Shown piece by piece: positions 20,320 through 52,401 of a DNA stretch of 64,000 nucleotides. Position 1 is the stretch's first letter; every line of letters starts with the position of its first letter. The notes below the pieces were generated by a model that was given only the letters and a program-made list of their open reading frames with translations, ran no database searches and was not told the origin of the DNA. Location: the NCBI GenBank assembly GCA_035509435.1, contig DATJLR010000007.1:1555-65554 (forward strand). Direction: 5' to 3'. This DNA comes from Minisyncoccota bacterium. GTDB taxonomy: Bacteria > Patescibacteriota > Minisyncoccia > UBA6257 > 2-01-FULL-56-20. Made by a program: the position numbers and the translations under genes.

Positions 20320-20394
20320 GGGCTGGTGGTGAAATGGTATCACAGCCTTCTTGCCAGATGGCAGTTCGGGGTTCGATTCTCCGCCAGTCCACCA
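20320..20394 (+). tRNA. tRNA-like gene, Gly(GCC)-like anticodon loop, encoded 3' CCA, irregular anticodon stem
   Basis: Acceptor GGGCTGG/CCAGTCC (one G-U), D arm GTGA-AATGGTA-TCAC, T arm CGGGG-TTCGATT-CTCCG, discriminator A then CCA. The anticodon region GCCTTCTTGCCAGATGGC has loop TTGCCAG (anticodon GCC), but the stem pairs only as G-C, C-G, C-G, TxT, T-A with an 8-nt loop. Confidence 0.55.
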
Positions 20395-21036: not shown

Positions 21037-27774
<6,738 letters not shown>

Positions 27775-31942: not shown

Positions 31943-32066
31943 CTTTGATGTCGGCACATCCTACTTTCCCCGCCCGAAGGCAAGTATCATGGGATTGGGA
32001 CGCTTTCACTTCTCTGTTCGGAATGGGAAGAGGTGGGACACGCCCGAATGAAGCACCGACATCAAA
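31943..32066 (-). rRNA. rrf: 5S rRNA
   Basis: Reverse complement contains CCCATTCCGAACAGAGAAGTGAAAG and paired ends tttgatgtcggtgc / gcaccgacatcaaa. Ends +/-5 nt. Confidence 0.85.
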
Positions 32067-32499: not shown

Positions 32500-33268
32500 C
32501 AATTTCTTCTTCTATCGCCATTACTGGCGGGTTGGACTATACCACCATCTCCACTGAGATGATCGACGTGTTAGTCCGGCATGATTGCCGGACTCCAGCT
32601 CGTAATGAGCTAAGTCTCTAAGGGGTCAATGCATGATATTTCCGCTTTTTTGAATAATTCAGAAAGCGAAAACGTTCTACTAATTCTGCCAACGCTCGAA
32701 AATCATCTTTACTTTGAATTTTCGATTTAGCATCGAGGATTTGGACCATCAGATCGGCTTGCTCACCTTTCAGTATCAGGAACCCACGAACTTCGCCGAG
32801 AAACGATCTGATCGCCTCTTCGCGCGCGATGGTATATTCGATCATGCCATCATTGCGTTCGCGGATATATCCCAAGTTAATAAGCGAACAAATTTCTTCA
32901 AATTTGCGCTGATCTTTTTTGGATTGGAAAAGCACGATGCAAGGAGCTATTTGAAATCCATATCGATAAGTCGAGTTAGATTTCATCCTTACATAGATAC
33001 TCCCATCTCCATCCAGAAATCCTGCTATGTATGCTTTTTGCGTTGACGAAAGACTTTTCATACACGACTTCCCTCGGTATTATCCTACGATCTCACGTCT
33101 CATCAAACTAGTTTTTAATCTATTTTTAATAAGCGTTACGATACATCCCAGGTCAGGATGTTAGGACTTCACCGATATGAGTCGATTTTGCTATCTCGAT
33201 CGCTCGAGAAAGCCGCCGTTTTTGTTTTAACAGTTTTTGATGTACCTTCGATCGGGTTATCTTCGTTG
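32500..33268 (-). mobile_element. Group I intron at 23S position equivalent to E. coli U2593 (I-CreI site)
   Basis: 5' exon ends ...GGGTTCAGACCGT and 3' exon resumes CGTGAGACAGGTCGG. The intron begins CAACGAAG and ends ...AATTG (omega-G). It is ~770 nt and includes a LAGLIDADG ORF. Confidence 0.75.
32618..33061 (-). CDS. LAGLIDADG homing endonuclease (single-motif, I-CreI-like)
   Basis: 147 aa; IAGFLDGDGSIYV motif; encoded inside the 2593 intron. Confidence 0.85.
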   Translation of the reverse strand: MKSLSSTQKAYIAGFLDGDGSIYVRMKSNSTYRYGFQIAPCIVLFQSKKDQRKFEEICSLINLGYIRERNDGMIEYTIAREEAIRSFLGEVRGFLILKGEQADLMVQILDAKSKIQSKDDFRALAELVERFRFLNYSKKRKYHALTP

Positions 33269-34269
33269 ACGGTCTGAACCCAGCTCACGTGCCACTTTAA
33301 TTGGCGAACAGCCAAACGCTTGGGAGCTTCTACACCCCCGCGCTGTGGCGAGCCGACATCGAGGTGCCGAGCATTGTCGTCGCTAGGGACGCTCGGACAA
33401 TACTAGCCTGTTATCCCCGGAGTAGCTTTTATCCGGTGTCTCCGGCCTTTCTATTAAGAAGCCGTCGGGTCACTAACTTCTGCTTTCGCACCTGCTCGTC
33501 TTGTATGACTCGCAGTCAAGCCAGCTTTTGCGTTTGCACGTCCTGCCCGATTTCCATCCGGGCTAAGCTAACCTTAATAAACTCCTCCGTTACTCTTTTG
33601 GAGGAAAACGCCCCATTTAAACTGCCTACCAAGCACTGTCTTAGCGGAGTTTCCCCGAAGGGTTCTCCGCCAGTTAGACGTCAAAATTCTGAAAATGGCT
33701 GTTTCATTGTCGGATCCACGTCACCCGAAAGCGACGCTTCAAATCCTCGCCACTACACTACGTAACAGAACTCTGAAATCAATACCAAGCTGCAGTAAAG
33801 CTTCCGGGGTCTTTTCGTCCCGCTGCAGGTATCCCGCGTCTTCACGGGAATCGCATTTTCACCGAGCTCATCGTTGAGACAGTTCTCCGGTCGTTACACC
33901 TTTCGTGCGCTTCGGAACTTACCCGAAAAGGAATTGCGCTCAAACATGTTACAACACTTTTTGTTGGCCAAAACATTTCTGCTTGGCTCTCTGTGTCGCC
34001 ACAGAGTTCGGACTATATCTTATCGCCTTGCGGCGATCCTAACGTGTAGTCTCTGAGGATCCTTCAAAAGAAGTTTCCTGCTGATTTTCCGCATCGATCA
34101 AAGATTGTTACCTTGCGGTACTTTGATATGCGCGGGTGTTCCAGCATATAGTTAGGTTTTACTAAGGCAATGCAATCACCTTAGAACGATTCTTTTACGT
34201 TATCACCCGCTCGTTTTTTAATTTAAGCGGGATCCTCATGGTCGCCCATGAGATCGGACTATATCATCT

Positions 34270-34827
34270 CTAAAAACTTTTAGAGTCTGGCGTATAGTCT
34301 CTGAGGATTCCTTGATAGTCTATTTCTACGTCTATTACGTTGTATTTACGCCTTCTTCCTCTTCCCTCATTTAAATTTTCCCTGATAGCGATAATTTCTT
34401 GCAGTCCTTTTGGATCAAGGTGTTTGCCTTGCTCCATAAGAAATGCAATTTGTTTGAACAGGAGAAAATTTTTCTTTTTTGATGAAGAAAAGAAAGGAAA
34501 CTTTTCGAAAAACGGTATGACGCGATCAATGATCGAACGATAATCGCCGACGACGAAGTAATGCACTCCGTCTTCACGATTTTGCAATCGTCCGCAACCT
34601 AAATGACTTTTTAATAATTCCAAATTGGCGATATCGCGCTGGGCCACGTTAAAGGTCATTTGCACCTGCCATCCAAGGCGATGCCCATTCCCTTTTCGAA
34701 GAGAGACATTAAAACTTCCCTCTCCATCCGTAAAACCAGAAAGATACCAGCCAATGTTGTCTGGAATTTTCTCAAGCCATTCACGGTTATACCAAGGCCT
34801 TTCCTGCTGATTGTCTGCACCGATCAT
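34270..34827 (-). CDS. LAGLIDADG homing endonuclease (single-motif)
   Basis: 185 aa; LSGFTDGEGSFNVS motif. Confidence 0.85.
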   Translation of the reverse strand: MIGADNQQERPWYNREWLEKIPDNIGWYLSGFTDGEGSFNVSLRKGNGHRLGWQVQMTFNVAQRDIANLELLKSHLGCGRLQNREDGVHYFVVGDYRSIIDRVIPFFEKFPFFSSSKKKNFLLFKQIAFLMEQGKHLDPKGLQEIIAIRENLNEGRGRRRKYNVIDVEIDYQGILRDYTPDSKSF

Positions 34828-34991
34828 ATTGTCACGCTAGCACATCAACATTAAATCTTTATTAAAAAGATTTCATGATGAGCAACGTAATGTCGGATTC
34901 TCAGAGTTTCCAGCATTTGGCCAGATTTTATAACTACAATCGTTATGTCTATAGTTATCGCTGACATTGACGAGGGCTTGAATCAGTGAGC

Positions 34992-35080
34992 CTCCTGGTA
35001 ACTAATTGCTAGTAACTCGGTAACCTAGCAAGAAAAATCTTGCTAGTTACCAAGGTTTACTAGTAACCAGTGACCAGGAG
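34992..35080. repeat. Imperfect ~40-bp-stem hairpin built from GTTAC(C/T)AG / CTAGTAAC words at the 5' edge of the domain-IV insertion (replaces the helix-68-like hairpin)
   Basis: ctcctggtaactaattgctagtaactcggtaacctagcaag-aaaaatc-ttgctagttaccaaggtttactagtaaccagtgaccaggag. Confidence 0.7.
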
Positions 35081-35723
35081 ACCCCCAATCTTGACCTTCT
35101 CGCATCGGTCAGGTGTCACCCCCTATACATCCTGTTGCCAGTTAGCAGGGAGCTGTGTTTTTGGTAAACAGTCGCCAGAGATTCTTTAGCTGCGGCCCCG
35201 CCCGCATTGCTGCGGAAAGGGCAGGCCTTATTGCTAACTTACGGCCGCTATTTTGCCTAGTTCCTTAACGATGAATCACTCGTTCCCCTTGGGCTACTCG
35301 CCCTATACACCAGTGTCGGTTTCCGGTACGGAGACCACACGCTCGATTTGGCCAAATTTTTCTCGAACGGCTCTTCACAAACGTCGGCCAGGTAAATTCC
35401 TGACCTTCTCTCGGCGCGCGCTTGAACTCCGCGCAAAGAATGCCAAACCGATAAGGCACGCCTGCTTATATCCGTTGTCCTTTGGTTATGATCGTGCGGC
35501 CGGGCTGGAATATTAACCAGCTTCCCATCGACTGCCCCTTTCGGGATCGCCTTAGGACCGCCTAACCCGTGGTTGATTGCCAGTGCCACGGAAACCTTGT
35601 ATTTTCGGGGTTCCAATTTCTCATTGGGATTGTGGTTACTCATTCCAACATTTTCTCTTCCGGCCGCTCCAAACGCCCTCGCGGGTCGATCTTCACTGCA
35701 GGCCGAAATGCTCTCCTACCACT

Positions 35724-35762
35724 ACTGGTAACTGATTACTAGTTGCTAGTAAACCTAGTAGA
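35724..35762. repeat. IVS 3'-flank motif block, complementary to 36163..36204 (RNase III-type stem of the 23S IVS)
   Basis: ctggtaactgattactagttgctagtaaacctagtag; reverse complement of the 5'-flank block is ctggtaactgattactggtaactaggaactagtaacaag. Confidence 0.7.
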
Positions 35763-36113
35763 TTTTTCAATGCTTTTTGTAAGATTGGTCAATTCTTTGC
35801 CGACGATCGCGTATTGCTCGGAAAGGAATTTGTATTGTTCATCGGAAAGTAACTCCACTTTCCGCATGAATTCAAGATTGAACGCTATTTCATCCGCTGA
35901 TCCCAAGGAATCTTTCAGATGATTGATCGTGTCCTTCTTTGATTTCTTCCGTGCGAACCCTTCCGCGATGTTTGAGGGAATTGAACGTGAGGCCCGCCGT
36001 ATTTGATCGGCAAGCTCCAGTTTATATTCCTTCGGCAATGAAAGAGATATTTTATGAACCTTTATTGCAAGTTCGAACGATCTTTTGAACACATCAAGAT
36101 CTTTGTATATCAT
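35739..36113 (-). CDS. 23S rRNA intervening-sequence protein (four-helix-bundle, TIGR02436-like)
   Basis: 124 aa; FELAIKVHKISLSLPKEYKLELADQIRRASRSIPSNIAEGFARK. Sits at a helix-45-like position (~E. coli 1170-1200) flanked by complementary motif blocks. Confidence 0.8.
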   Translation of the reverse strand: MIYKDLDVFKRSFELAIKVHKISLSLPKEYKLELADQIRRASRSIPSNIAEGFARKKSKKDTINHLKDSLGSADEIAFNLEFMRKVELLSDEQYKFLSEQYAIVGKELTNLTKSIEKSTRFTSN

Positions 36114-36162
36114 CCTTCCATTGAACCATTTCTCGCATTAACTCTTTCTTAAATCTTTTCCT

Positions 36163-36204
36163 TGTTACTAGTTCCTAGTTACCAGTAATCAGTTACCAGT
36201 AATC
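36163..36204. repeat. IVS 5'-flank motif block (partner of 35724..35762)
   Basis: cttgttactagttcctagttaccagtaatcagttaccagtaatccg. Confidence 0.7.
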
Positions 36205-37050
36205 CGTATCTTCGGTACCATGCTTAGCCCCGGTACATTTTCGGCGCCACGACCCGTCGAATAGTGAGTTGTTACACACTCTTTAAAGGATGGCTACCTC
36301 TAAGCCAACCTCCTATCTGTCTATGGGTCATGACTACCTTTTACACTTAGCATGGATTTAGGGACCTTAGATGACGATCTGGGCTCTTCCCCTCGCGACC
36401 ACGGAGCTTAGCCCCCGCAGTCTAACTAGCAAGATCTTGACTCTCGGTATTCGGAGTTTGATTGATCGTTCGGTCTTTCGACCTGTAACGATCATCCAGT
36501 GCTCTACCCCCAAGAGGAACTCTTGCCGCCAGTCCTAAAACTGTTTCGGAGAGAACCAGCTATTACGTTATTCGATTAGCTTTTCACTCCTTACCTCAGC
36601 TCATCCGAAGATTTTGAACAATCAACCGGTTCGGGCCTCCCTCCCGATTTCTCGGGAGTTCACCCTGGCCAAGGCAAGCTCATAACGCTTCGGGTCTATC
36701 TTGTGCTGCGATCCCACTCAAATTTTTGGAGCCGTGACAAATCCACGGCGATGCGGTATTTTTATGATTAGCTTCTCCTCCACGGGAGGCCGTATGTTCT
36801 CAGGACACAGCCCCGATCCCATGCTTCAGGGCCTCACTTCCTTTCTCATGGAAGCAAACCCGATTGCCTGGGGAGTGCTTGCCGTCGGTGTCGCATTGCT
36901 TATCGTGGCCATTTGGAGCATGCACCACGAAAACAAAACCCCGACCTGCAAGTGACCAATCTGCCAAAACACCTGCCCGCTCACGCGCGCGGGTGTTTTC
37001 TTTTGGCGCTCACGCGCCGCTTATTTCTCCAAAAATTTGAGTGGGATGTG

Positions 37051-37081
<31 letters not shown>

Positions 37082-37244
37082 TCACGCTATGCGCGCTTAG
37101 ACAAGCAACACAAAATAAGTCGTTGGATCATTCTTCAATAGGCACATTGTTCCACTCGTCCGCGGATTGCTCCGCAGCCGTTCGTGGTTCAATTCCTTGT
37201 AGACAAACGGTTTCAGGTTCTATTTCAACGGCCTCACCGGCCTG

Positions 37245-37281
<37 letters not shown>

Positions 37282-38230
37282 ATCTAGAAAAGTATTTAGC
37301 CTTACCTGATAGTACAGGTGTATTCCTCCGGAACTGTTTTACTCCGAAGTACTCAAGTTAAAAAACTAAGGAGACCAAAAGTTTTCGTCTACGGGGCTAT
37401 CACCCGCTCTGGCGCCGCTTTCCAGACGGCTTCGACTAACCAATGATTTTTTTACTCCTCCACCTCCCAGCGAGTAACGCAACGTACACTTGCGTGCGCG
37501 CTACGTTACTTGCTAAAAGAGCGTTTTTTACTGAACCCCAAGATCGTGATAAATCACAACCTTAGTTTGGGCTCCTCCCCGTTCTCTCGCCGATACTTAG
37601 GGAATAACTGATTTGTTCTATTTTCCTCCGCTTACTGGAATGTTTTACTTCAGCGGGTACGCGATCCGCTTGCGCGGAACAATTGAGGGTTACTCAACTA
37701 GGTTTCCCCATTCGGAAATTCCCGGATCACAGGTTGCTACGCACCTCCCCGAGACATATCGTTGCTACGCCACGTCCTTCATCGCCTTTTCTAGTCTAGG
37801 CATCCACCGTTCGCCCTTATTTGCCAACCATCCCAATGCTGACTTGCTCGTGGATCACAGCGAAACGCCGCAATCCACTTGCCATCAGTAAGAAAAATTC
37901 TTACCGATGCTTTGACCCTGTCCGTCACGAGAAATTGACTACATATGCGTATGCAGCGATCCGGCCCACCCGCAATGCGGATGTTAGCGACCGGACCTAA
38001 TAGTGACACAGGGTCTCCATATTATGTCCTCCGACTCTACAATTCGGAGTTCCGCCAAATCGGCGAATGATTTGAAATAGCATTTGCTCAGCATCGCGAG
38101 ACGCTGCAAGACACGGACCGCCAAGAAAAAAATCAGCCGCACACAGCGGCCGCTGACTGCTTCAAAGAAGCGGCTTCAGCCGGAGTGTTGTGAGAGATTT
38201 AAAGTCTTGACCATTCGTATCTTGAGGATA

Positions 38231-48080: not shown

Positions 48081-49067
48081 ATGGCAGGGATGAAGTCGCC
48101 AAATTCACCCTTGATGTATGCACGACGACGACGCGCGAACAAAAAATGGCTGTGGGTGGCAGTTGCAGCCATCACTTGCCTGATTGTGCTATGCGGCTGG
48201 TGGGCTTTCGCCCGATCGCCAGCGTCCCCGTCTGCGAATACGCCGCCCGGCACGCTCGCGTGGCCGTCGTTCGGACAGGCCGCCGTCGGCATCGTTGGCA
48301 CGAGCACGATCCAAACATACGGCGATCAAACGCCAGTGCCGACGGCGAGTACCGCAAAAATGATCACCGCTCTCGTGGTGCTCCAAGCCAAACCGCTCTC
48401 GCCCGGCCAAACCGGTCCGATGCTTACCATGTCGCGCGATGACCTTGTCTTATTGAAAACCTACGCCGCCCTTGATGGCTCGAGAATCACCAAAATGGGG
48501 GTCGGCGAACAGCTGAGCGAGTATCAGATGCTGGAAGCCATGATGCTACCCTCCGCCGACAATGCAGCCGACAGCCTGGCCATCTGGGCGTATGGCTCGC
48601 TGCCCGCATACAGCGCAGCTGCCAACAGTTATCTGGCCGGTTTGGGCTTAAGCGGCACGCATGTGGGAACCGACGCGAGCGGCCTTGACCCGAGCACGGT
48701 AAGCACCGCGCACGACATGGTGCTCATCGGCGAACTTGTTATGCAGAATCCTGTGCTTGCGGAAATTGTTGGGGAGCAAAGTGTCAGCGGGTTTCCCTTG
48801 GTAGGCACCATTACCAACACGAACAGCTTGCTTGGCCAGGACGGGATCGTCGGCGTGAAGACCGGCAATAGCGACGAGCAGAGCGGCGCTTATGTGGCGG
48901 CCGCGGATGCCACTGTGAACGGAAAAACTGAAACCATCGTAACGGCAGTACTTGATGCGCCGAGCCTCGACGACGCCATGGATGCCAGCGTGCCGTTGAT
49001 AAAGAGCACCAGGTTTGGCTCTTTATCAAAATCCCGACCTAAAGCCACTCAGGATGTTTCTCTTTAA
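48081..49067 (+). CDS. D-alanyl-D-alanine carboxypeptidase (S11, PBP5-like)
   Basis: TM/signal; STAKMIT (SxxK), SADN (SxN), KTG-like region. Confidence 0.75.
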   Translation: MAGMKSPNSPLMYARRRRANKKWLWVAVAAITCLIVLCGWWAFARSPASPSANTPPGTLAWPSFGQAAVGIVGTSTIQTYGDQTPVPTASTAKMITALVVLQAKPLSPGQTGPMLTMSRDDLVLLKTYAALDGSRITKMGVGEQLSEYQMLEAMMLPSADNAADSLAIWAYGSLPAYSAAANSYLAGLGLSGTHVGTDASGLDPSTVSTAHDMVLIGELVMQNPVLAEIVGEQSVSGFPLVGTITNTNSLLGQDGIVGVKTGNSDEQSGAYVAAADATVNGKTETIVTAVLDAPSLDDAMDASVPLIKSTRFGSLSKSRPKATQDVSL

Positions 49068-49395
49068 TCGAATTAAACCATTCAGCACCAATGATATCTT
49101 CAAGGCTATAATCTTTAAACTCTTTTGATTGAGAGAGGTCGATGACATCTTTTTCGTCTACATAGACCTTGCATTCCCCGCTTGATTCCACGTCACGAAT
49201 TTCTCCTGGGAAAATTTGCAGGTTGATCTTGTTATTCTTGTGTCTCATATAAAAGAGCCAAATTTTTTGGCCGTTATGTAATGGCCCATATTTATCAACT
49301 AGCTTCTTAATCCAAATTTGATTACGTAATGAGAAATGTCCATCAGCATAGTCGTTCCAATCCCCATTGATAAATACTTGTTTCCCTGATTTCAT
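49039..49395 (-). CDS. Hypothetical protein in AT-rich island (candidate immunity/accessory)
   Basis: 118 aa; local GC roughly 38% versus ~60% for the flanks. Confidence 0.4.
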   Translation of the reverse strand: MKSGKQVFINGDWNDYADGHFSLRNQIWIKKLVDKYGPLHNGQKIWLFYMRHKNNKINLQIFPGEIRDVESSGECKVYVDEKDVIDLSQSKEFKDYSLEDIIGAEWFNSIKEKHPEWL

Positions 49396-49401
49396 GTTTT
49401 T

Positions 49402-49773
49402 TTAGCACTTAGAAAGCTCGAATTTCCCTACGTTCTCTTTAAAAGAATTGCCGTAAGCATATAGTTCGATTTGGGTAATACGGCCGTCCTTTCCCCATAA
49501 TACCGATCCGCCTCCATCATCGATATCCTGAGATTTTATTTCTGGTCCATCAAGCGGCCATCCTTTTTTTCTTAATTTATTTATATCAACAAGGTTCGCG
49601 TCCGAAGAAACGTCGAGCTTTATATAAAATCCCGTTTTAGTCCATTTTCGCTCTTTCAATTTAGCAGTATTTATTTGCACGGAAAGATTCTCGTCTTTAT
49701 AGCGTTGGGCGAACCATTGCAAAATAGCCTTTTCTAAACTATTCAACTGAACTTTGCTTGAAGATGATTCCAT
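49402..49773 (-). CDS. Hypothetical protein in AT-rich island (candidate immunity protein)
   Basis: 123-aa ORF in the same low-GC block, tightly spaced. Confidence 0.4.
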   Translation of the reverse strand: MESSSSKVQLNSLEKAILQWFAQRYKDENLSVQINTAKLKERKWTKTGFYIKLDVSSDANLVDINKLRKKGWPLDGPEIKSQDIDDGGGSVLWGKDGRITQIELYAYGNSFKENVGKFELSKC

Positions 49774-49787
49774 TCAAACTGGCGACG

Positions 49788-50108
49788 CTAAACTTGCTTC
49801 TTCTGTTTACTGTCATAAACAAATTCATAAGCGATATCCCCTTCCTTGTGCTGCTCAAAGAAATCCTTTGCTTTTTGGTAAGAAATTTCAAAACTATCAT
49901 CGGAATAGTCAGCAGAGTAATCTTGATCGATTTGGATCGCCCGAGGAGAAACATTTTTAAGTAAATGAAATCCATCGAAACCGAGTAAGCGCAAGTTGTT
50001 TTCTCTCAATAGACCAAGAAACACTACTGCGTCCTTCCTGTTGAGGAGAGTCGCATTATCGTAGGGTTTTAGTCTGTGTTCGGATAGGAATTGTTGTATT
50101 TTGTCCAT
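49788..50108 (-). CDS. Hypothetical protein in AT-rich island (candidate immunity protein)
   Basis: 106 aa; directly downstream of the toxin-like gene. Confidence 0.4.
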   Translation of the reverse strand: MDKIQQFLSEHRLKPYDNATLLNRKDAVVFLGLLRENNLRLLGFDGFHLLKNVSPRAIQIDQDYSADYSDDSFEISYQKAKDFFEQHKEGDIAYEFVYDSKQKKQV

Positions 50109-50120
50109 GGCTTTAATATA

Positions 50121-50729
50121 TCACTCAAATGGAAAGATTTCATCTGGAACTATGATGCCTGGTTCTTCCGGAACGACCTCCGGAATATATGGATCTTGAA
50201 TGGAAGAATCGGGATACCATTCAGGATCATTTTTGTTGGATACTTGAATTACTTGTTTAGTCACATTATCAACGGAAACATAGTTCCCCTGCTCATCATA
50301 ATACGCGGTCGCTGGATTGCCATTTGCCTTATTCGCTGCAGCGCGCGTGGTGAAGGGATTTCCATAAAGCTTGTCTATGTCTTGCTGAGTCCAACCGCGA
50401 CCCTCCATTTGATTGGATATTTTTTCTGGGATTACAGGACCGCTACCCCCTCCACCAGACCCTCCCGAAGTCACCAAACTTCCATACCCACCAATAGATA
50501 TCCACGGCGATCCCGTTCCACCCTGCCCTCCTCCAGCTGGCGTATTAACACCAACATTGTTCAGATTAGAAGGATTGCCTGCTTTGCCAATATTCGTAGA
50601 ACCAACATTATTTCCCTGACCCGGATTACTCATTGACCCTCCTGTTGTAGCGGCTAATTGCCCCAAGCTATTAACTATGGATTGCAAACTATTCACTATT
50701 TGCTGTAGTGAAGCGATAATAGATTTCAA
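50121..50729 (-). CDS. Gly/Asn-rich secreted protein with conserved C-terminal toxin-like domain (polymorphic-toxin-like)
   Basis: 202 aa; N-terminal LQQIVNSLQSIVNSLGQLAATTGG, Gly-rich linker, C-terminal GWTQQDIDKLYGNPFTTRAA...ATAYYDEQGNYVSVDNVTKQVIQVS, followed by three small ORFs. Confidence 0.45.
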   Translation of the reverse strand: MKSIIASLQQIVNSLQSIVNSLGQLAATTGGSMSNPGQGNNVGSTNIGKAGNPSNLNNVGVNTPAGGGQGGTGSPWISIGGYGSLVTSGGSGGGGSGPVIPEKISNQMEGRGWTQQDIDKLYGNPFTTRAAANKANGNPATAYYDEQGNYVSVDNVTKQVIQVSNKNDPEWYPDSSIQDPYIPEVVPEEPGIIVPDEIFPFE

Positions 50730-51027
50730 ATCTTTTCCGCTCGGATCTTTCTTGGTAATGGGATTATCATCGGAATACGAATACGCATTCTAAGCTGCCT
50801 TTCATCCCGAATACAACAAACCGAGGCCTCTCGGTCTTAAAAGAATCTACCTTGGCTGTTGCGGGGGCAAGACTCGGACTTGCTTCGGAAGCTTATGGGG
50901 CTTCCCGGAAAACCTTTCCCAACCCTCCCGCGCGATGATGCCTGCGCGGGCATTGAGGGCTCACGCATGCATCGCTGTCCTGTGCATTATATAAATTTTC
51001 TGGCGTGATTGTCAAAAGAACGGATTA

Positions 51028-52401
51028 GTGAGATTATCAATCCATATCCATTCCACAACGATGATGACAATGCCCGACGCGGTCGCGCAACACTTTAAAG
51101 GAAAGAAAATAACGCTCATGGGGCTGGGACTCCTGGGCCGCGGCGTGGGCGATGCGGAATTTTTGGCCGCATGCGGCGCGGAGGAGCTTATCGTGACGGA
51201 TCTGAAGACCGAGGCGGAGCTCGCGCCGTCGATCCAAAGATTAAAAGATCATAAAAATGTTGTTTATCACTTGGGCGGCCACCGCATGGAGGATTTTGAA
51301 GGCCGCGACATGATCGTGCGCGCGCCGAACACGCCGCTCGATTCGCCGTTCATCGCGCACGCGCGCGAGCACGGCATTCCGGTGGAGATGGACGCATCGC
51401 TCTTTGCAAAGCTCTCCCCTGCCACGATCGTGGGCATCACCGGCACGCGCGGCAAATCCACCGTCACCCACCTTATATATGAGATGGCGCGCGCGGCGGG
51501 GAAAAGCGCCGTGCTCGGCGGCAACGAGCGCGGGACGGCGACGCTTCCGCTCCTCGCGACGACCGATGCGCAAAGCGTGGTCGTCCTGGAACTCGACTCG
51601 TGGCAGCTCCAGGGGTTTGAGGACTCTAAGCTCAGTCCGCACATTTCCGTCTGGACGAACTTCATGCCCGACCACATGAACTATTACAAAGGCAACATGG
51701 AGCGCTACTTCCGCGACAAGGCCGCCATCGCGCGATTCCAAAAACCGGGAGATGTTTTTGTGACGACGACGGAGATAAAGGAGAAGATAGAAGCGCAGTT
51801 CGGCGCGCTCGCTGGCACGTGCATCACCGATCCAAACATTCCGGATGATTGGACGGTTGCATTGCCCGGCGAGCATAATCGCAGGAACGCCGCCTTTGCC
51901 CGCGCGGCGGCAGAGAGCCTGGGCGTGAGCGACGAGATCATTAAAAATATATTAAAAACATTTACCGGGCTGCCGGGGCGGCTGGAACTGCTCGGCGAAA
52001 AGAACGGTATCGCGTTCTATGATGACGCAAACTCCACGACGCCCGAAGCGACGATCGCGGCGCTCAAAGCGCTCGCTCCGCAGAACCGCCCGATAGTGCT
52101 TATCGCCGGAGGCAGCGACAAAGAGCTGGATTTCGCCGCGCTCGCGCCCGAGATAAAAGCGCGCGCAAAAAAGCTCATCCTCTTTAACGGCAAAGCGACG
52201 GACAAGATCGCGGCGCTCCTTGGCGCAGACACGCCGTTCACGCCGGCGGCGAGCATGGACGAGGCGTTCGCCGCTGCGCTCGCGGCCGCCGCGCCGGGCG
52301 ACATCATCCTCCTCTCCCCCGGCGCCACAAGCTTCGGCATCTTCAAGAACGAATACGATCGCGGCGACCAGTTCCGGGCGGCATTCAAGAAGCTCGCGTG
52401 A
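51028..52401 (+). CDS. murD: UDP-N-acetylmuramoylalanine--D-glutamate ligase
   Basis: KKITLMGLGLLGRGVG Rossmann fold, ITGTRGKSTVTHL P-loop, Mur ligase C-terminal domain. Confidence 0.9.
   Translation: MRLSIHIHSTTMMTMPDAVAQHFKGKKITLMGLGLLGRGVGDAEFLAACGAEELIVTDLKTEAELAPSIQRLKDHKNVVYHLGGHRMEDFEGRDMIVRAPNTPLDSPFIAHAREHGIPVEMDASLFAKLSPATIVGITGTRGKSTVTHLIYEMARAAGKSAVLGGNERGTATLPLLATTDAQSVVVLELDSWQLQGFEDSKLSPHISVWTNFMPDHMNYYKGNMERYFRDKAAIARFQKPGDVFVTTTEIKEKIEAQFGALAGTCITDPNIPDDWTVALPGEHNRRNAAFARAAAESLGVSDEIIKNILKTFTGLPGRLELLGEKNGIAFYDDANSTTPEATIAALKALAPQNRPIVLIAGGSDKELDFAALAPEIKARAKKLILFNGKATDKIAALLGADTPFTPAASMDEAFAAALAAAAPGDIILLSPGATSFGIFKNEYDRGDQFRAAFKKLA

Follow-up and report, generated by a model that had tools for sequence, protein, structure and literature searches.

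The window analyzed here is a whole 64-kb stretch of DNA from a genome of Candidatus Paceibacterota (candidate phyla radiation (CPR)/Patescibacteria). Four open reading frames (ORFs) on its minus strand, here called Tox, ImmA, ImmB, and ImmC, follow one another head-to-tail with gaps of 12, 14, and 6 nt (Table 1), at the coordinates given in an earlier reading of this sequence (the original prediction). They were expected to lie between a D,D-carboxypeptidase gene and murD, and this is where they are: a Peptidase_S11 (D,D-carboxypeptidase-like, dacA-like) gene occupies 48081-49067, and murD, with its Mur_ligase domains, occupies 51028-52401. It is likely that these four genes form a horizontally acquired islet of ~1.77 kb (about 49030-50795), which consists of an orphan rhs-CT cassette and two small genes.

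The composition of the islet is different from that of the rest of the window. The GC content of 49039-50729 is 40.6%, compared with 56.2% for the whole window, and it is the minimum among all 1.7-kb windows along the stretch (mean 56.2%, sd 4.4%). Apart from the islet, only the 23S rRNA gene is low in GC. A GC content of ~38% had been predicted, and this is right for the three small genes (36.7-38.6%) and too low for the islet as a whole and for Tox (45.3%). At third codon positions the GC content (GC3) is 36-40% in the four islet genes and 63-80% in eight neighboring genes, including the dacA-like gene, murD, gatC, gatA, and rpoBC. Since both GC and GC3 depart from those of the neighbors, the AT-rich composition argues strongly for a foreign origin, in agreement with the horizontal acquisition proposed originally and with the GC comparison that had been named as its check. 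Homologs exist for all four ORFs, and nonsynonymous divergence (0.11-0.25 per site) is far below synonymous divergence, which is saturated (0.55-0.99). Therefore, the ORFs are genuine genes and not chance frames, and they are under purifying selection. ImmA, ImmB, and ImmC were all overlooked by the Logan gene caller, while an identical copy of ImmB is present in NCBI as VMA75_04395, a "hypothetical protein" on a 459,847-bp contig of a Candidatus Paceibacterota metagenome-assembled genome.

At the left edge the GC content climbs from ~40% to 60-70% at the hairpin at 50808-50837, and a GC step is also found at the right edge. Over 48996-49067, the dacA-like ORF spans the inverted repeat that marks the right edge and shares 29 nt with ImmC. 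Because this ORF runs through the edge, the C-terminal tail of the carboxypeptidase may have been rewritten by the insertion of the islet. When flanking direct repeats and att-like sites were looked for, the only finds were short repeats at chance level and the 12-bp inverted repeat just mentioned. The stretch at 50808-51015 (minus strand) directly abuts the islet and has a promoter that matches the sigma-70 consensus perfectly (TTGACA, 18 nt, TATAAT; 12/12). Downstream of it are ~170 nt of GC-rich non-coding sequence followed by the hairpin and T-run, and this arrangement resembles a short transcription unit. The GC-rich unit (50808-50980) was considered as a signal recognition particle RNA or a known small RNA and was rejected, as it had no Rfam match at E up to 1; the z-score of its fold is only -1.39.

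Table 1. Positions of the islet genes, of the parts of Tox, and of the islet edges
Feature	Position	Strand	Description
Tox	50121-50729	minus	202 aa, TTG start; orphan rhs-CT toxin ORF
Tox residues 1-97	50439-50729	minus	Short repeat-containing helical-looking segment (SLQQIVNSLQSIVNSLGQL), then Gly/Ser/Asn-rich linker
Tox residues 100-175	50205-50432	minus	Predicted colicin E5-type tRNA anticodon nuclease domain, BECR fold (Pfam PF12106)
Tox C-terminal tail	50124-50195	minus	Pro/Glu-rich, after the nuclease domain; ends DEIFPFE (alignment with P0002)
ImmA	49788-50108	minus	106 aa; predicted cognate immunity gene, ImmE5-like fold, family without a Pfam model
ImmB	49402-49773	minus	123 aa; conserved, unannotated family; candidate orphan immunity gene
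ImmC	49039-49395	minus	118 aa; conserved, second unannotated family; candidate orphan immunity gene
RHS core-end remnant	50730-50792	minus	In-frame TAG stop (50790-50792) and 20 codons (NAYSYSDDNPITKKDPSGKD) with the PxxxxDPxG motif; left junction
Terminator-like hairpin	50808-50837	minus	GC-rich hairpin and T-run on the host side, directly upstream of the left junction
Inverted repeat	48996-49029	none	Perfect 12-bp repeat with a 10-nt loop; right edge of the islet, within the last dacA-like codons

The toxin gene and its RHS origin

A domain search of the Tox C-terminus, as suggested with the original prediction, found the polymorphic-toxin domain Colicin_E5, a tRNase (PF12106; E=2.6e-23; 82.5 bits with a cutoff of 25), and the match covers profile positions 5-87 of 88. 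Tox also matches the structures of the colicin E5 C-terminal ribonuclease domain (E5-CRD; 2a8k/2dfx) with E ~6e-9. Lys25, Arg33, and Lys60 of E5-CRD, together with Gln29 and Trp102, have catalytic or substrate-binding roles (Yajima et al. 2006, PMC1669751). K103, Q107, R111, and W171 of Tox align with Lys25, Gln29, Arg33, and Trp102. Because of the family match and the retained equivalents of these four E5 residues, the Tox domain is probably an active tRNA anticodon nuclease, as far as its sequence can tell. The nuclease core is acidic (pI 4.6). The heptapeptide DEIFPFE that ends the Pro/Glu-rich tail is identical at the C-terminus of P0002 (locus L002), the closest homolog of Tox.

The part of Tox ahead of this compact domain is Gly/Asn-rich, as had been described: residues 31-97 include 23 Gly, 10 Ser, and 9 Asn among 67. 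In residues 1-97 there is no Pfam domain, including trafficking and delivery domains, and neither a signal peptide nor a membrane-spanning stretch (15-residue Kyte-Doolittle maximum, 1.0). The RHS core-end motif NAYSYSDDNPITKKDPSGK is directly after an in-frame stop and ahead of the first possible start codon of Tox. More precisely, DNPITKKDPSGK is in frame after the TAG, three codons (GKD) upstream of the TTG start. It is the sole match to this motif in the six-frame translation of the 64 kb. In an alignment with the core ends of RHS-linked homologs (NPYSYGEDNPINLEDPGGK in P0002, NSYSYARNNPINLSDPSGR in L045 from Paceibacterota, and NGYSYAHNDPINLSDPSGK in L023 from Patescibacteria), the residues Y, Y, P, D, P, and G are invariant. 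YD repeats were found in no frame of the window, and the Tox ORF has no RHS_repeat match. An ORF of 2245 aa elsewhere in the window was considered as the parent RHS gene and was rejected, as it is a fused RpoB-RpoC. P0002, which is 59% identical to Tox and has the same layout, is likewise truncated, a little upstream of the core-end motif, and so starts within the RHS core tail.

The Tox gene is thus the 3′ end of a 5′-truncated RHS toxin gene, and the segment consists of the last 20 core codons, the linker, and the ColE5 domain. GC-rich sequence and the terminator-like hairpin begin upstream of the TAG, and therefore the left junction cuts through the rhs gene. Since the core-end motif follows the stop, and YD repeats and an export region are both missing, Tox is an orphan rhs-CT cassette. 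The gene had been described as polymorphic-toxin-like; it does have a genuine polymorphic-toxin C-terminal domain, but it is a 5′-truncated rhs-CT fragment and not a complete toxin. Besides the TTG, alternative starts are a GTG at 50696, the choice of a different gene caller, and an ATG at codon 33 with a Shine-Dalgarno-like AGGAGG 4 nt before it.

In other genomes, a domain-alignment scan of one genome per species gave 42 ColE5 loci from many phyla, and the open frames with this domain range from 87 to >2086 aa. When ten long homologs were searched against Pfam, the ColE5 domain was C-terminal on varied carriers. These were RHS proteins (L024, L014, L021), Fil_haemagg/DUF637 proteins of the CdiA type (L032, L037), Phage_Mu_F (L017), Cloacin/Pyocin_S (L043), and PT-HINT (L046). 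The same C-terminus therefore occurs on different N-termini, the signature that the original prediction had proposed to look for. Tox-ColE5 with ImmE5 on RHS and FilH carriers has already been described among polymorphic toxins (Zhang et al. 2012, PMC3482391). In two Patescibacteria loci (L023 and L045), the ColE5 domain is the C-terminus of an RHS protein and the same core-end motif is ahead of it. The locus from Patescibacteria group bacterium KR11_N2 (L023, 86-8706) encodes a full RHS protein of 1515 aa and an immunity gene, followed by three orphan rhs-CT cassettes. Each orphan starts in the RHS core, so that there are four core-end motifs in total, and one orphan is a ColE5 domain with an ImmA-like gene.

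The three small genes

The pairing of the toxin with ImmA is conserved. The gene right after P0002 is 53% identical to ImmA. By BLAST clustering, the first downstream gene clustered with ImmA in 14 of the 42 ColE5 loci, and a hidden Markov model of the ImmA family had a match directly after the toxin, or overlapping its end, in ~23 of them. A search of 1.84 billion proteins gave 28 representative clusters of this family (50% identity), nearly all of them ~100 aa, with the conserved motifs G-F-D-G-F, Q-I-D-Q..S.D-Y-S, and Y-E-x-V. ImmA itself had nothing usable in Pfam (E up to 1), NCBIfam, PADLOC, or PHROGs, and a sequence search of the PDB gave nothing significant. In Pfam, 37 of 38 family members had no match and one had a weak Imm40 match, while a true ImmE5 from Edaphovirga scored E=3.6e-26 (PF11480). 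In an exact-sequence look-up, ImmA and P0006 were not on record.

The two best PDB matches of the ImmA-family profile were both the colicin E5 immunity protein (2fhz_A and 2dfx_I). The AlphaFold2 (AF2) model of ImmA has a pLDDT of 93.6, and its top Foldseek match was again 2fhz_A (probability 1.00, E=2.4e-3, 88 columns), with the next match at E=0.75. In the profile alignment, D45 of ImmA, the Asp of GFDGF that at least 90% of family members share, pairs with the Asp of "GIDGG" in ImmE5. Counted from Phe60 as given in PMC1669751, this residue is Asp51, and in ImmE5 Asp51 takes the position of the tRNA phosphate on the catalytic Lys/Arg cluster (PMC1669751). Because the synteny is conserved and ImmE5 is the top match by both profile and fold, ImmA is predicted to be the cognate immunity protein of Tox and a remote ImmE5-like inhibitor.

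Several observations were made on related loci. In Paenibacillus haidiansis (L010, 5011-6738), the ColE5 and ImmA-family domains are in one ORF with no stop between them (…NPYIPNGGRLMSQENLL…). This is a fusion of the toxin and immunity domains, or else an error in the sequence. A tandem array in L003 (1144-2394) contains a ColE5 end, a Cys/His-rich gene of 130 aa, a 141-nt remnant of a second ColE5 end, and a paralogous gene of 132 aa. The toxin of L003 is 64% identical, yet its immunity family is different from ImmA. Cys/His zinc-ribbon-like tails or small genes recur beside homologs of ImmA and ImmB elsewhere (L002 1324-1479; the C-terminus of P0007, L004 6406-6537; L023 6588-6878; L004 6831-7163), while the copies in the window are without them.

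ImmA, ImmB, and ImmC are mutually unrelated: they were considered as paralogs, and this was dropped since sequence comparison showed no relation. ImmB has homologs at 43-67% identity (nonsynonymous difference (pN) ~0.22, synonymous difference (pS) saturated), and ImmC has homologs at ~76% identity (nonsynonymous divergence (dN) ~0.13, synonymous divergence (dS) at least 1). Neither ImmB and ImmC nor their homologs matched Pfam Imm1-74, SUKH/SMI1, PADLOC, or NCBIfam, and ImmB and ImmC had nothing usable in PHROGs, no significant PDB sequence match, and no match in plasmids or viral contigs. The AF2 model of ImmB (pLDDT 83.5) had no Foldseek match with E <0.1 in the PDB or BFVD. Thus, of the three candidate immunity genes proposed originally, ImmA stands as a conserved partner with an ImmE5-like fold, and the search for Imm/SUKH families, suggested for all the small proteins, gave no such family, or any other, for ImmB and ImmC. 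The homologs of ImmB and ImmC elsewhere are solitary AT-rich islets in GC-richer contigs. Two ImmC copies, those of L006 and L050, carry frameshifts, and the one in L006 abuts a large serine recombinase. A metagenome scan with ImmC recovered only L006.

Proposed role and alternatives

The role proposed here is one in which we infer the enzymatic activity of Tox, the mechanism of its inhibition, the expression state, and the parts played by ImmB and ImmC. The ColE5-type domain of Tox would cut the anticodon loop of tRNAs, which for the Colicin_E5 family means tRNA-Tyr/His/Asn/Asp. The fragment as it stands would not be deliverable to another cell, because the YD-repeat shell and any export region have been lost. 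ImmA would most likely block the active site of the nuclease, with the near-invariant Asp of GFDGF acting as a tRNA-phosphate mimic like Asp51 of ImmE5. Full RHS-ColE5 toxins are encoded by Patescibacteria (L023, L045), and the present-day value of the islet is likely to be that ImmA, and perhaps ImmB and ImmC, would shield the cell from ColE5-type RHS toxins of its neighbors. A silent or weakly expressed Tox fragment might be a reserve with which a full-length rhs gene at another site could recombine, or an addiction element that retains the islet. Recombination or internal expression has been described for orphan rhs/cdi modules (PMC3150448, PMC3967940, PMC7043789). Judging only from their position, ImmB and ImmC are best regarded as members of a small "polyimmunity" array, as orphan immunity genes, with a chance that is about even at most. 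We would suggest only tentatively that they are the founders of two new immunity families, which with ImmA would form a compact acquired defense islet against RHS toxins, the truncated toxin being an addiction or recombination remnant. If so, the islet would let a Paceibacterota episymbiont with a reduced genome survive attack with RHS toxins by neighbors or relatives.

Several results weigh against parts of this proposal. No full-length rhs gene was found within the 64-kb window, while classical orphans adjoin a main rhs gene. Lys60 of E5 aligns with N140 of Tox, and the family-conserved K141 is one residue off in a gapped, shortened loop. The relationship of ImmA with ImmE5 is distant: the two best PDB matches of the profile were weak (E=0.15), hhalign of the family against the Edaphovirga ImmE5 gave P=0.09, and the TM-score of the ImmA model with 2fhz_A was 0.50. 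Three candidate starts are available to the Tox ORF (TTG, GTG, and the ATG with AGGAGG ahead of it), and so Tox may be made. There is no toxin adjoining the homologs of ImmB (L004/L005, L049, and the P0009 contig) or of ImmC (L006, L050, and the P0010 contig). The sole link of ImmB to an immunity position is a marginal one, namely its weak resemblance (hmmsearch E=0.005, hhalign P=0.002) to L022:5464-5826, the gene after a MuF-type toxin in a toxin array of Oscillospiraceae.

Tox and ImmA might instead be an intracellular toxin-antitoxin (addiction) pair, in which the nuclease would be made from an internal start (TTG, GTG, or the ATG at codon 33) and restrained by ImmA, and which would stabilize the islet or modulate growth. 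Such internal action is known for orphan Rhs modules of Salmonella (PMC3967940, PMC7043789). The intact ORF, the retained equivalents of Lys25, Gln29, Arg33, and Trp102, a dN much below dS in the comparison with P0002, and the maintenance of the islet with no rhs gene in the 64-kb window are all in line with it, and so is the AGGAGG 4 nt ahead of the codon-33 ATG. However, this AGGAGG falls in the Gly codons of the Gly-rich linker and may be there by chance, between the terminator-like hairpin and the Tox ORF no promoter has more than 9/12 consensus matches, and ImmA has no antitoxin-type DNA-binding domain in Pfam. An internally expressed pair of this type is plausible and compatible with an orphan rhs-CT cassette, while as the explanation of the locus we consider it possible but rather unlikely. 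It is improbable that Tox is a complete, stand-alone, small secreted toxin similar to bacteriocins, with the 97-residue N-region as a new export or targeting module of Paceibacterota. In its favor, P0002 has the same short architecture, linker, and DEIFPFE tail with no RHS body attached, and to our knowledge CPR bacteria lack the usual carriers of the type VI and type VII secretion systems. But the RHS junction motif is outside the ORF, right after the stop, which indicates truncation and not design, and P0002 too starts within the RHS core tail. The N-region has no signal peptide, hydrophobic segment, or Pfam trafficking domain, while every longer homolog bears a recognized delivery region.

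For ImmB and ImmC, the alternative is that they are not immunity genes and are unrelated mobile hitch-hikers, for example phage- or element-derived accessory genes, beside the toxin-immunity pair. We give this a little less than an even chance. Their homologs are single AT-rich islets with no toxin near them, one ImmC copy is beside a large serine recombinase and two are frameshifted, and neither the Imm/SUKH and defense families nor, for ImmB, the fold search gave a match. On the other hand, ImmB and ImmC follow ImmA closely, with gaps of 14 and 6 nt, and share its strand and composition, and viral contigs and plasmids are without matches to them. It is also a known pattern that immunity genes occur as solitary orphans or in heterogeneous polyimmunity loci (PMC3482391), and the post-toxin gene in L022 is weakly similar to ImmB. 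The AT-rich segment as a whole could in principle be an assembly or binning artifact, with foreign DNA chimerically joined into a GC-rich contig, since the source is a metagenome-assembled genome and the GC step is sharp at both edges. Different assembly pipelines gave identical junctions, on contigs of 33 kb (Logan), 99 kb, and 460 kb, and the DNA is 100% identical in the separate Logan assembly (run SRR8879132). The dacA-like ORF crosses the right junction, and host genes flank the islet on both sides on one contig. Because the junctions are common to three assemblies, a chimera is very improbable.

Related systems and other features of the window

Orphan rhs-CT/rhsI and cdiA-CT/cdiI modules are known from Enterobacteria (Poole et al. 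2011, PMC3150448; Koskiniemi et al. 2014, PMC3967940; Starsta et al. 2020, PMC7043789). Similar to these, Tox is 5′-truncated and keeps the PxxxxDPxG junction and the full C-terminal toxin domain, the immunity gene is directly after the toxin, and the composition is unlike that of the host. In contrast to them, the islet has no full-length rhs gene upstream of it (there is none within 64 kb), it keeps only 20 core codons, which are outside the ORF, two extra unrelated small genes follow, and its host is a Paceibacterota with a reduced genome. Compared with colicin E5 and ImmE5 (ColE5-099; PDB 2dfx, 2fhz; PF12106, PF11480), Tox is of the Colicin_E5 family with the equivalents of Lys25, Gln29, Arg33, and Trp102, but it lacks translocation and receptor domains, its core is acidic, and the loop with the Lys60 equivalent is shorter. 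ImmE5 is the best profile and fold match of ImmA, and the two have the G-x-D-G motif in common, whose Asp contacts catalytic residues in the case of ImmE5. Unlike ImmE5, ImmA gets no score with the Pfam ImmE5 model, and its family is a separate one that has no model.

The closest systems in the same phylum are the RHS-ColE5 loci L023 and L045, which have the same domain, the same core-end motif (QN.YSYA.N.PIN.SDPSG), and an ImmA-family gene directly downstream. They encode full YD-repeat RHS proteins (1515 aa in L023) with tandem orphans, whereas the cassette in the window is single and isolated. Heterogeneous polyimmunity loci (Zhang et al. 2012, PMC3482391) and acquired interbacterial defense clusters (Ross et al. 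2019, as cited in PMC13622651) are, like the islet, runs of small unrelated acquired genes, beside a toxin or with none, which are thought to protect against the toxins of others. As far as the accounts cited here go, the islet differs from them in that ImmB and ImmC are in no described immunity family and have no known cognate toxin, and in that the array has only three genes.

Tox-ColE5 and ImmE5 on RHS carriers, orphan cassettes, and polyimmunity arrays are thus already described (PMC3482391, PMC3150448). What is new is modest, namely an isolated orphan cassette in Paceibacterota, a widespread unmodelled ImmE5-like family, and two unannotated small-gene families that may be involved in immunity. 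In the literature, we found no paper that deals in detail with polymorphic or RHS toxins in CPR bacteria. Warfare cassettes of the RHS type circulate in Paceibacterota, and displaced orphans and their antidotes are among them. The conflict biology of these ultra-small bacteria, which depend on hosts, has hardly been studied. There is also a gap in the family libraries, since the ImmA family follows ColE5-type toxins in many phyla and is modelled by none of Pfam, NCBIfam, and PADLOC, and a gap in annotation, since three AT-rich small genes were missed by one gene caller. In practice, the islet offers a small and clean test case for the specificity of tRNase toxins and their immunity proteins, and two candidate new immunity families.

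Some other features of the window were recorded. The 2245-aa ORF at 21037-27774 (minus strand) is an in-frame rpoB-rpoC fusion, with Rpb2 domains at aa 22-1046 and Rpb1 domains at aa 1056-2150. At 20320-20394 (plus strand), ARAGORN reported a tRNA-like element with a two-base undetermined anticodon, which the Rfam tRNA model does not report. A 5S rRNA is at 31949-32060, and no 16S was found in the window. The 23S rRNA gene at 33157-37830 (minus strand) is stretched to 4.67 kb by insertions and contains a group I intron and an ORF of a LAGLIDADG homing endonuclease (33989-34187, 34270-34827). A 23S rRNA gene stretched in this way, with an intron and a LAGLIDADG ORF, fits CPR/Patescibacteria.

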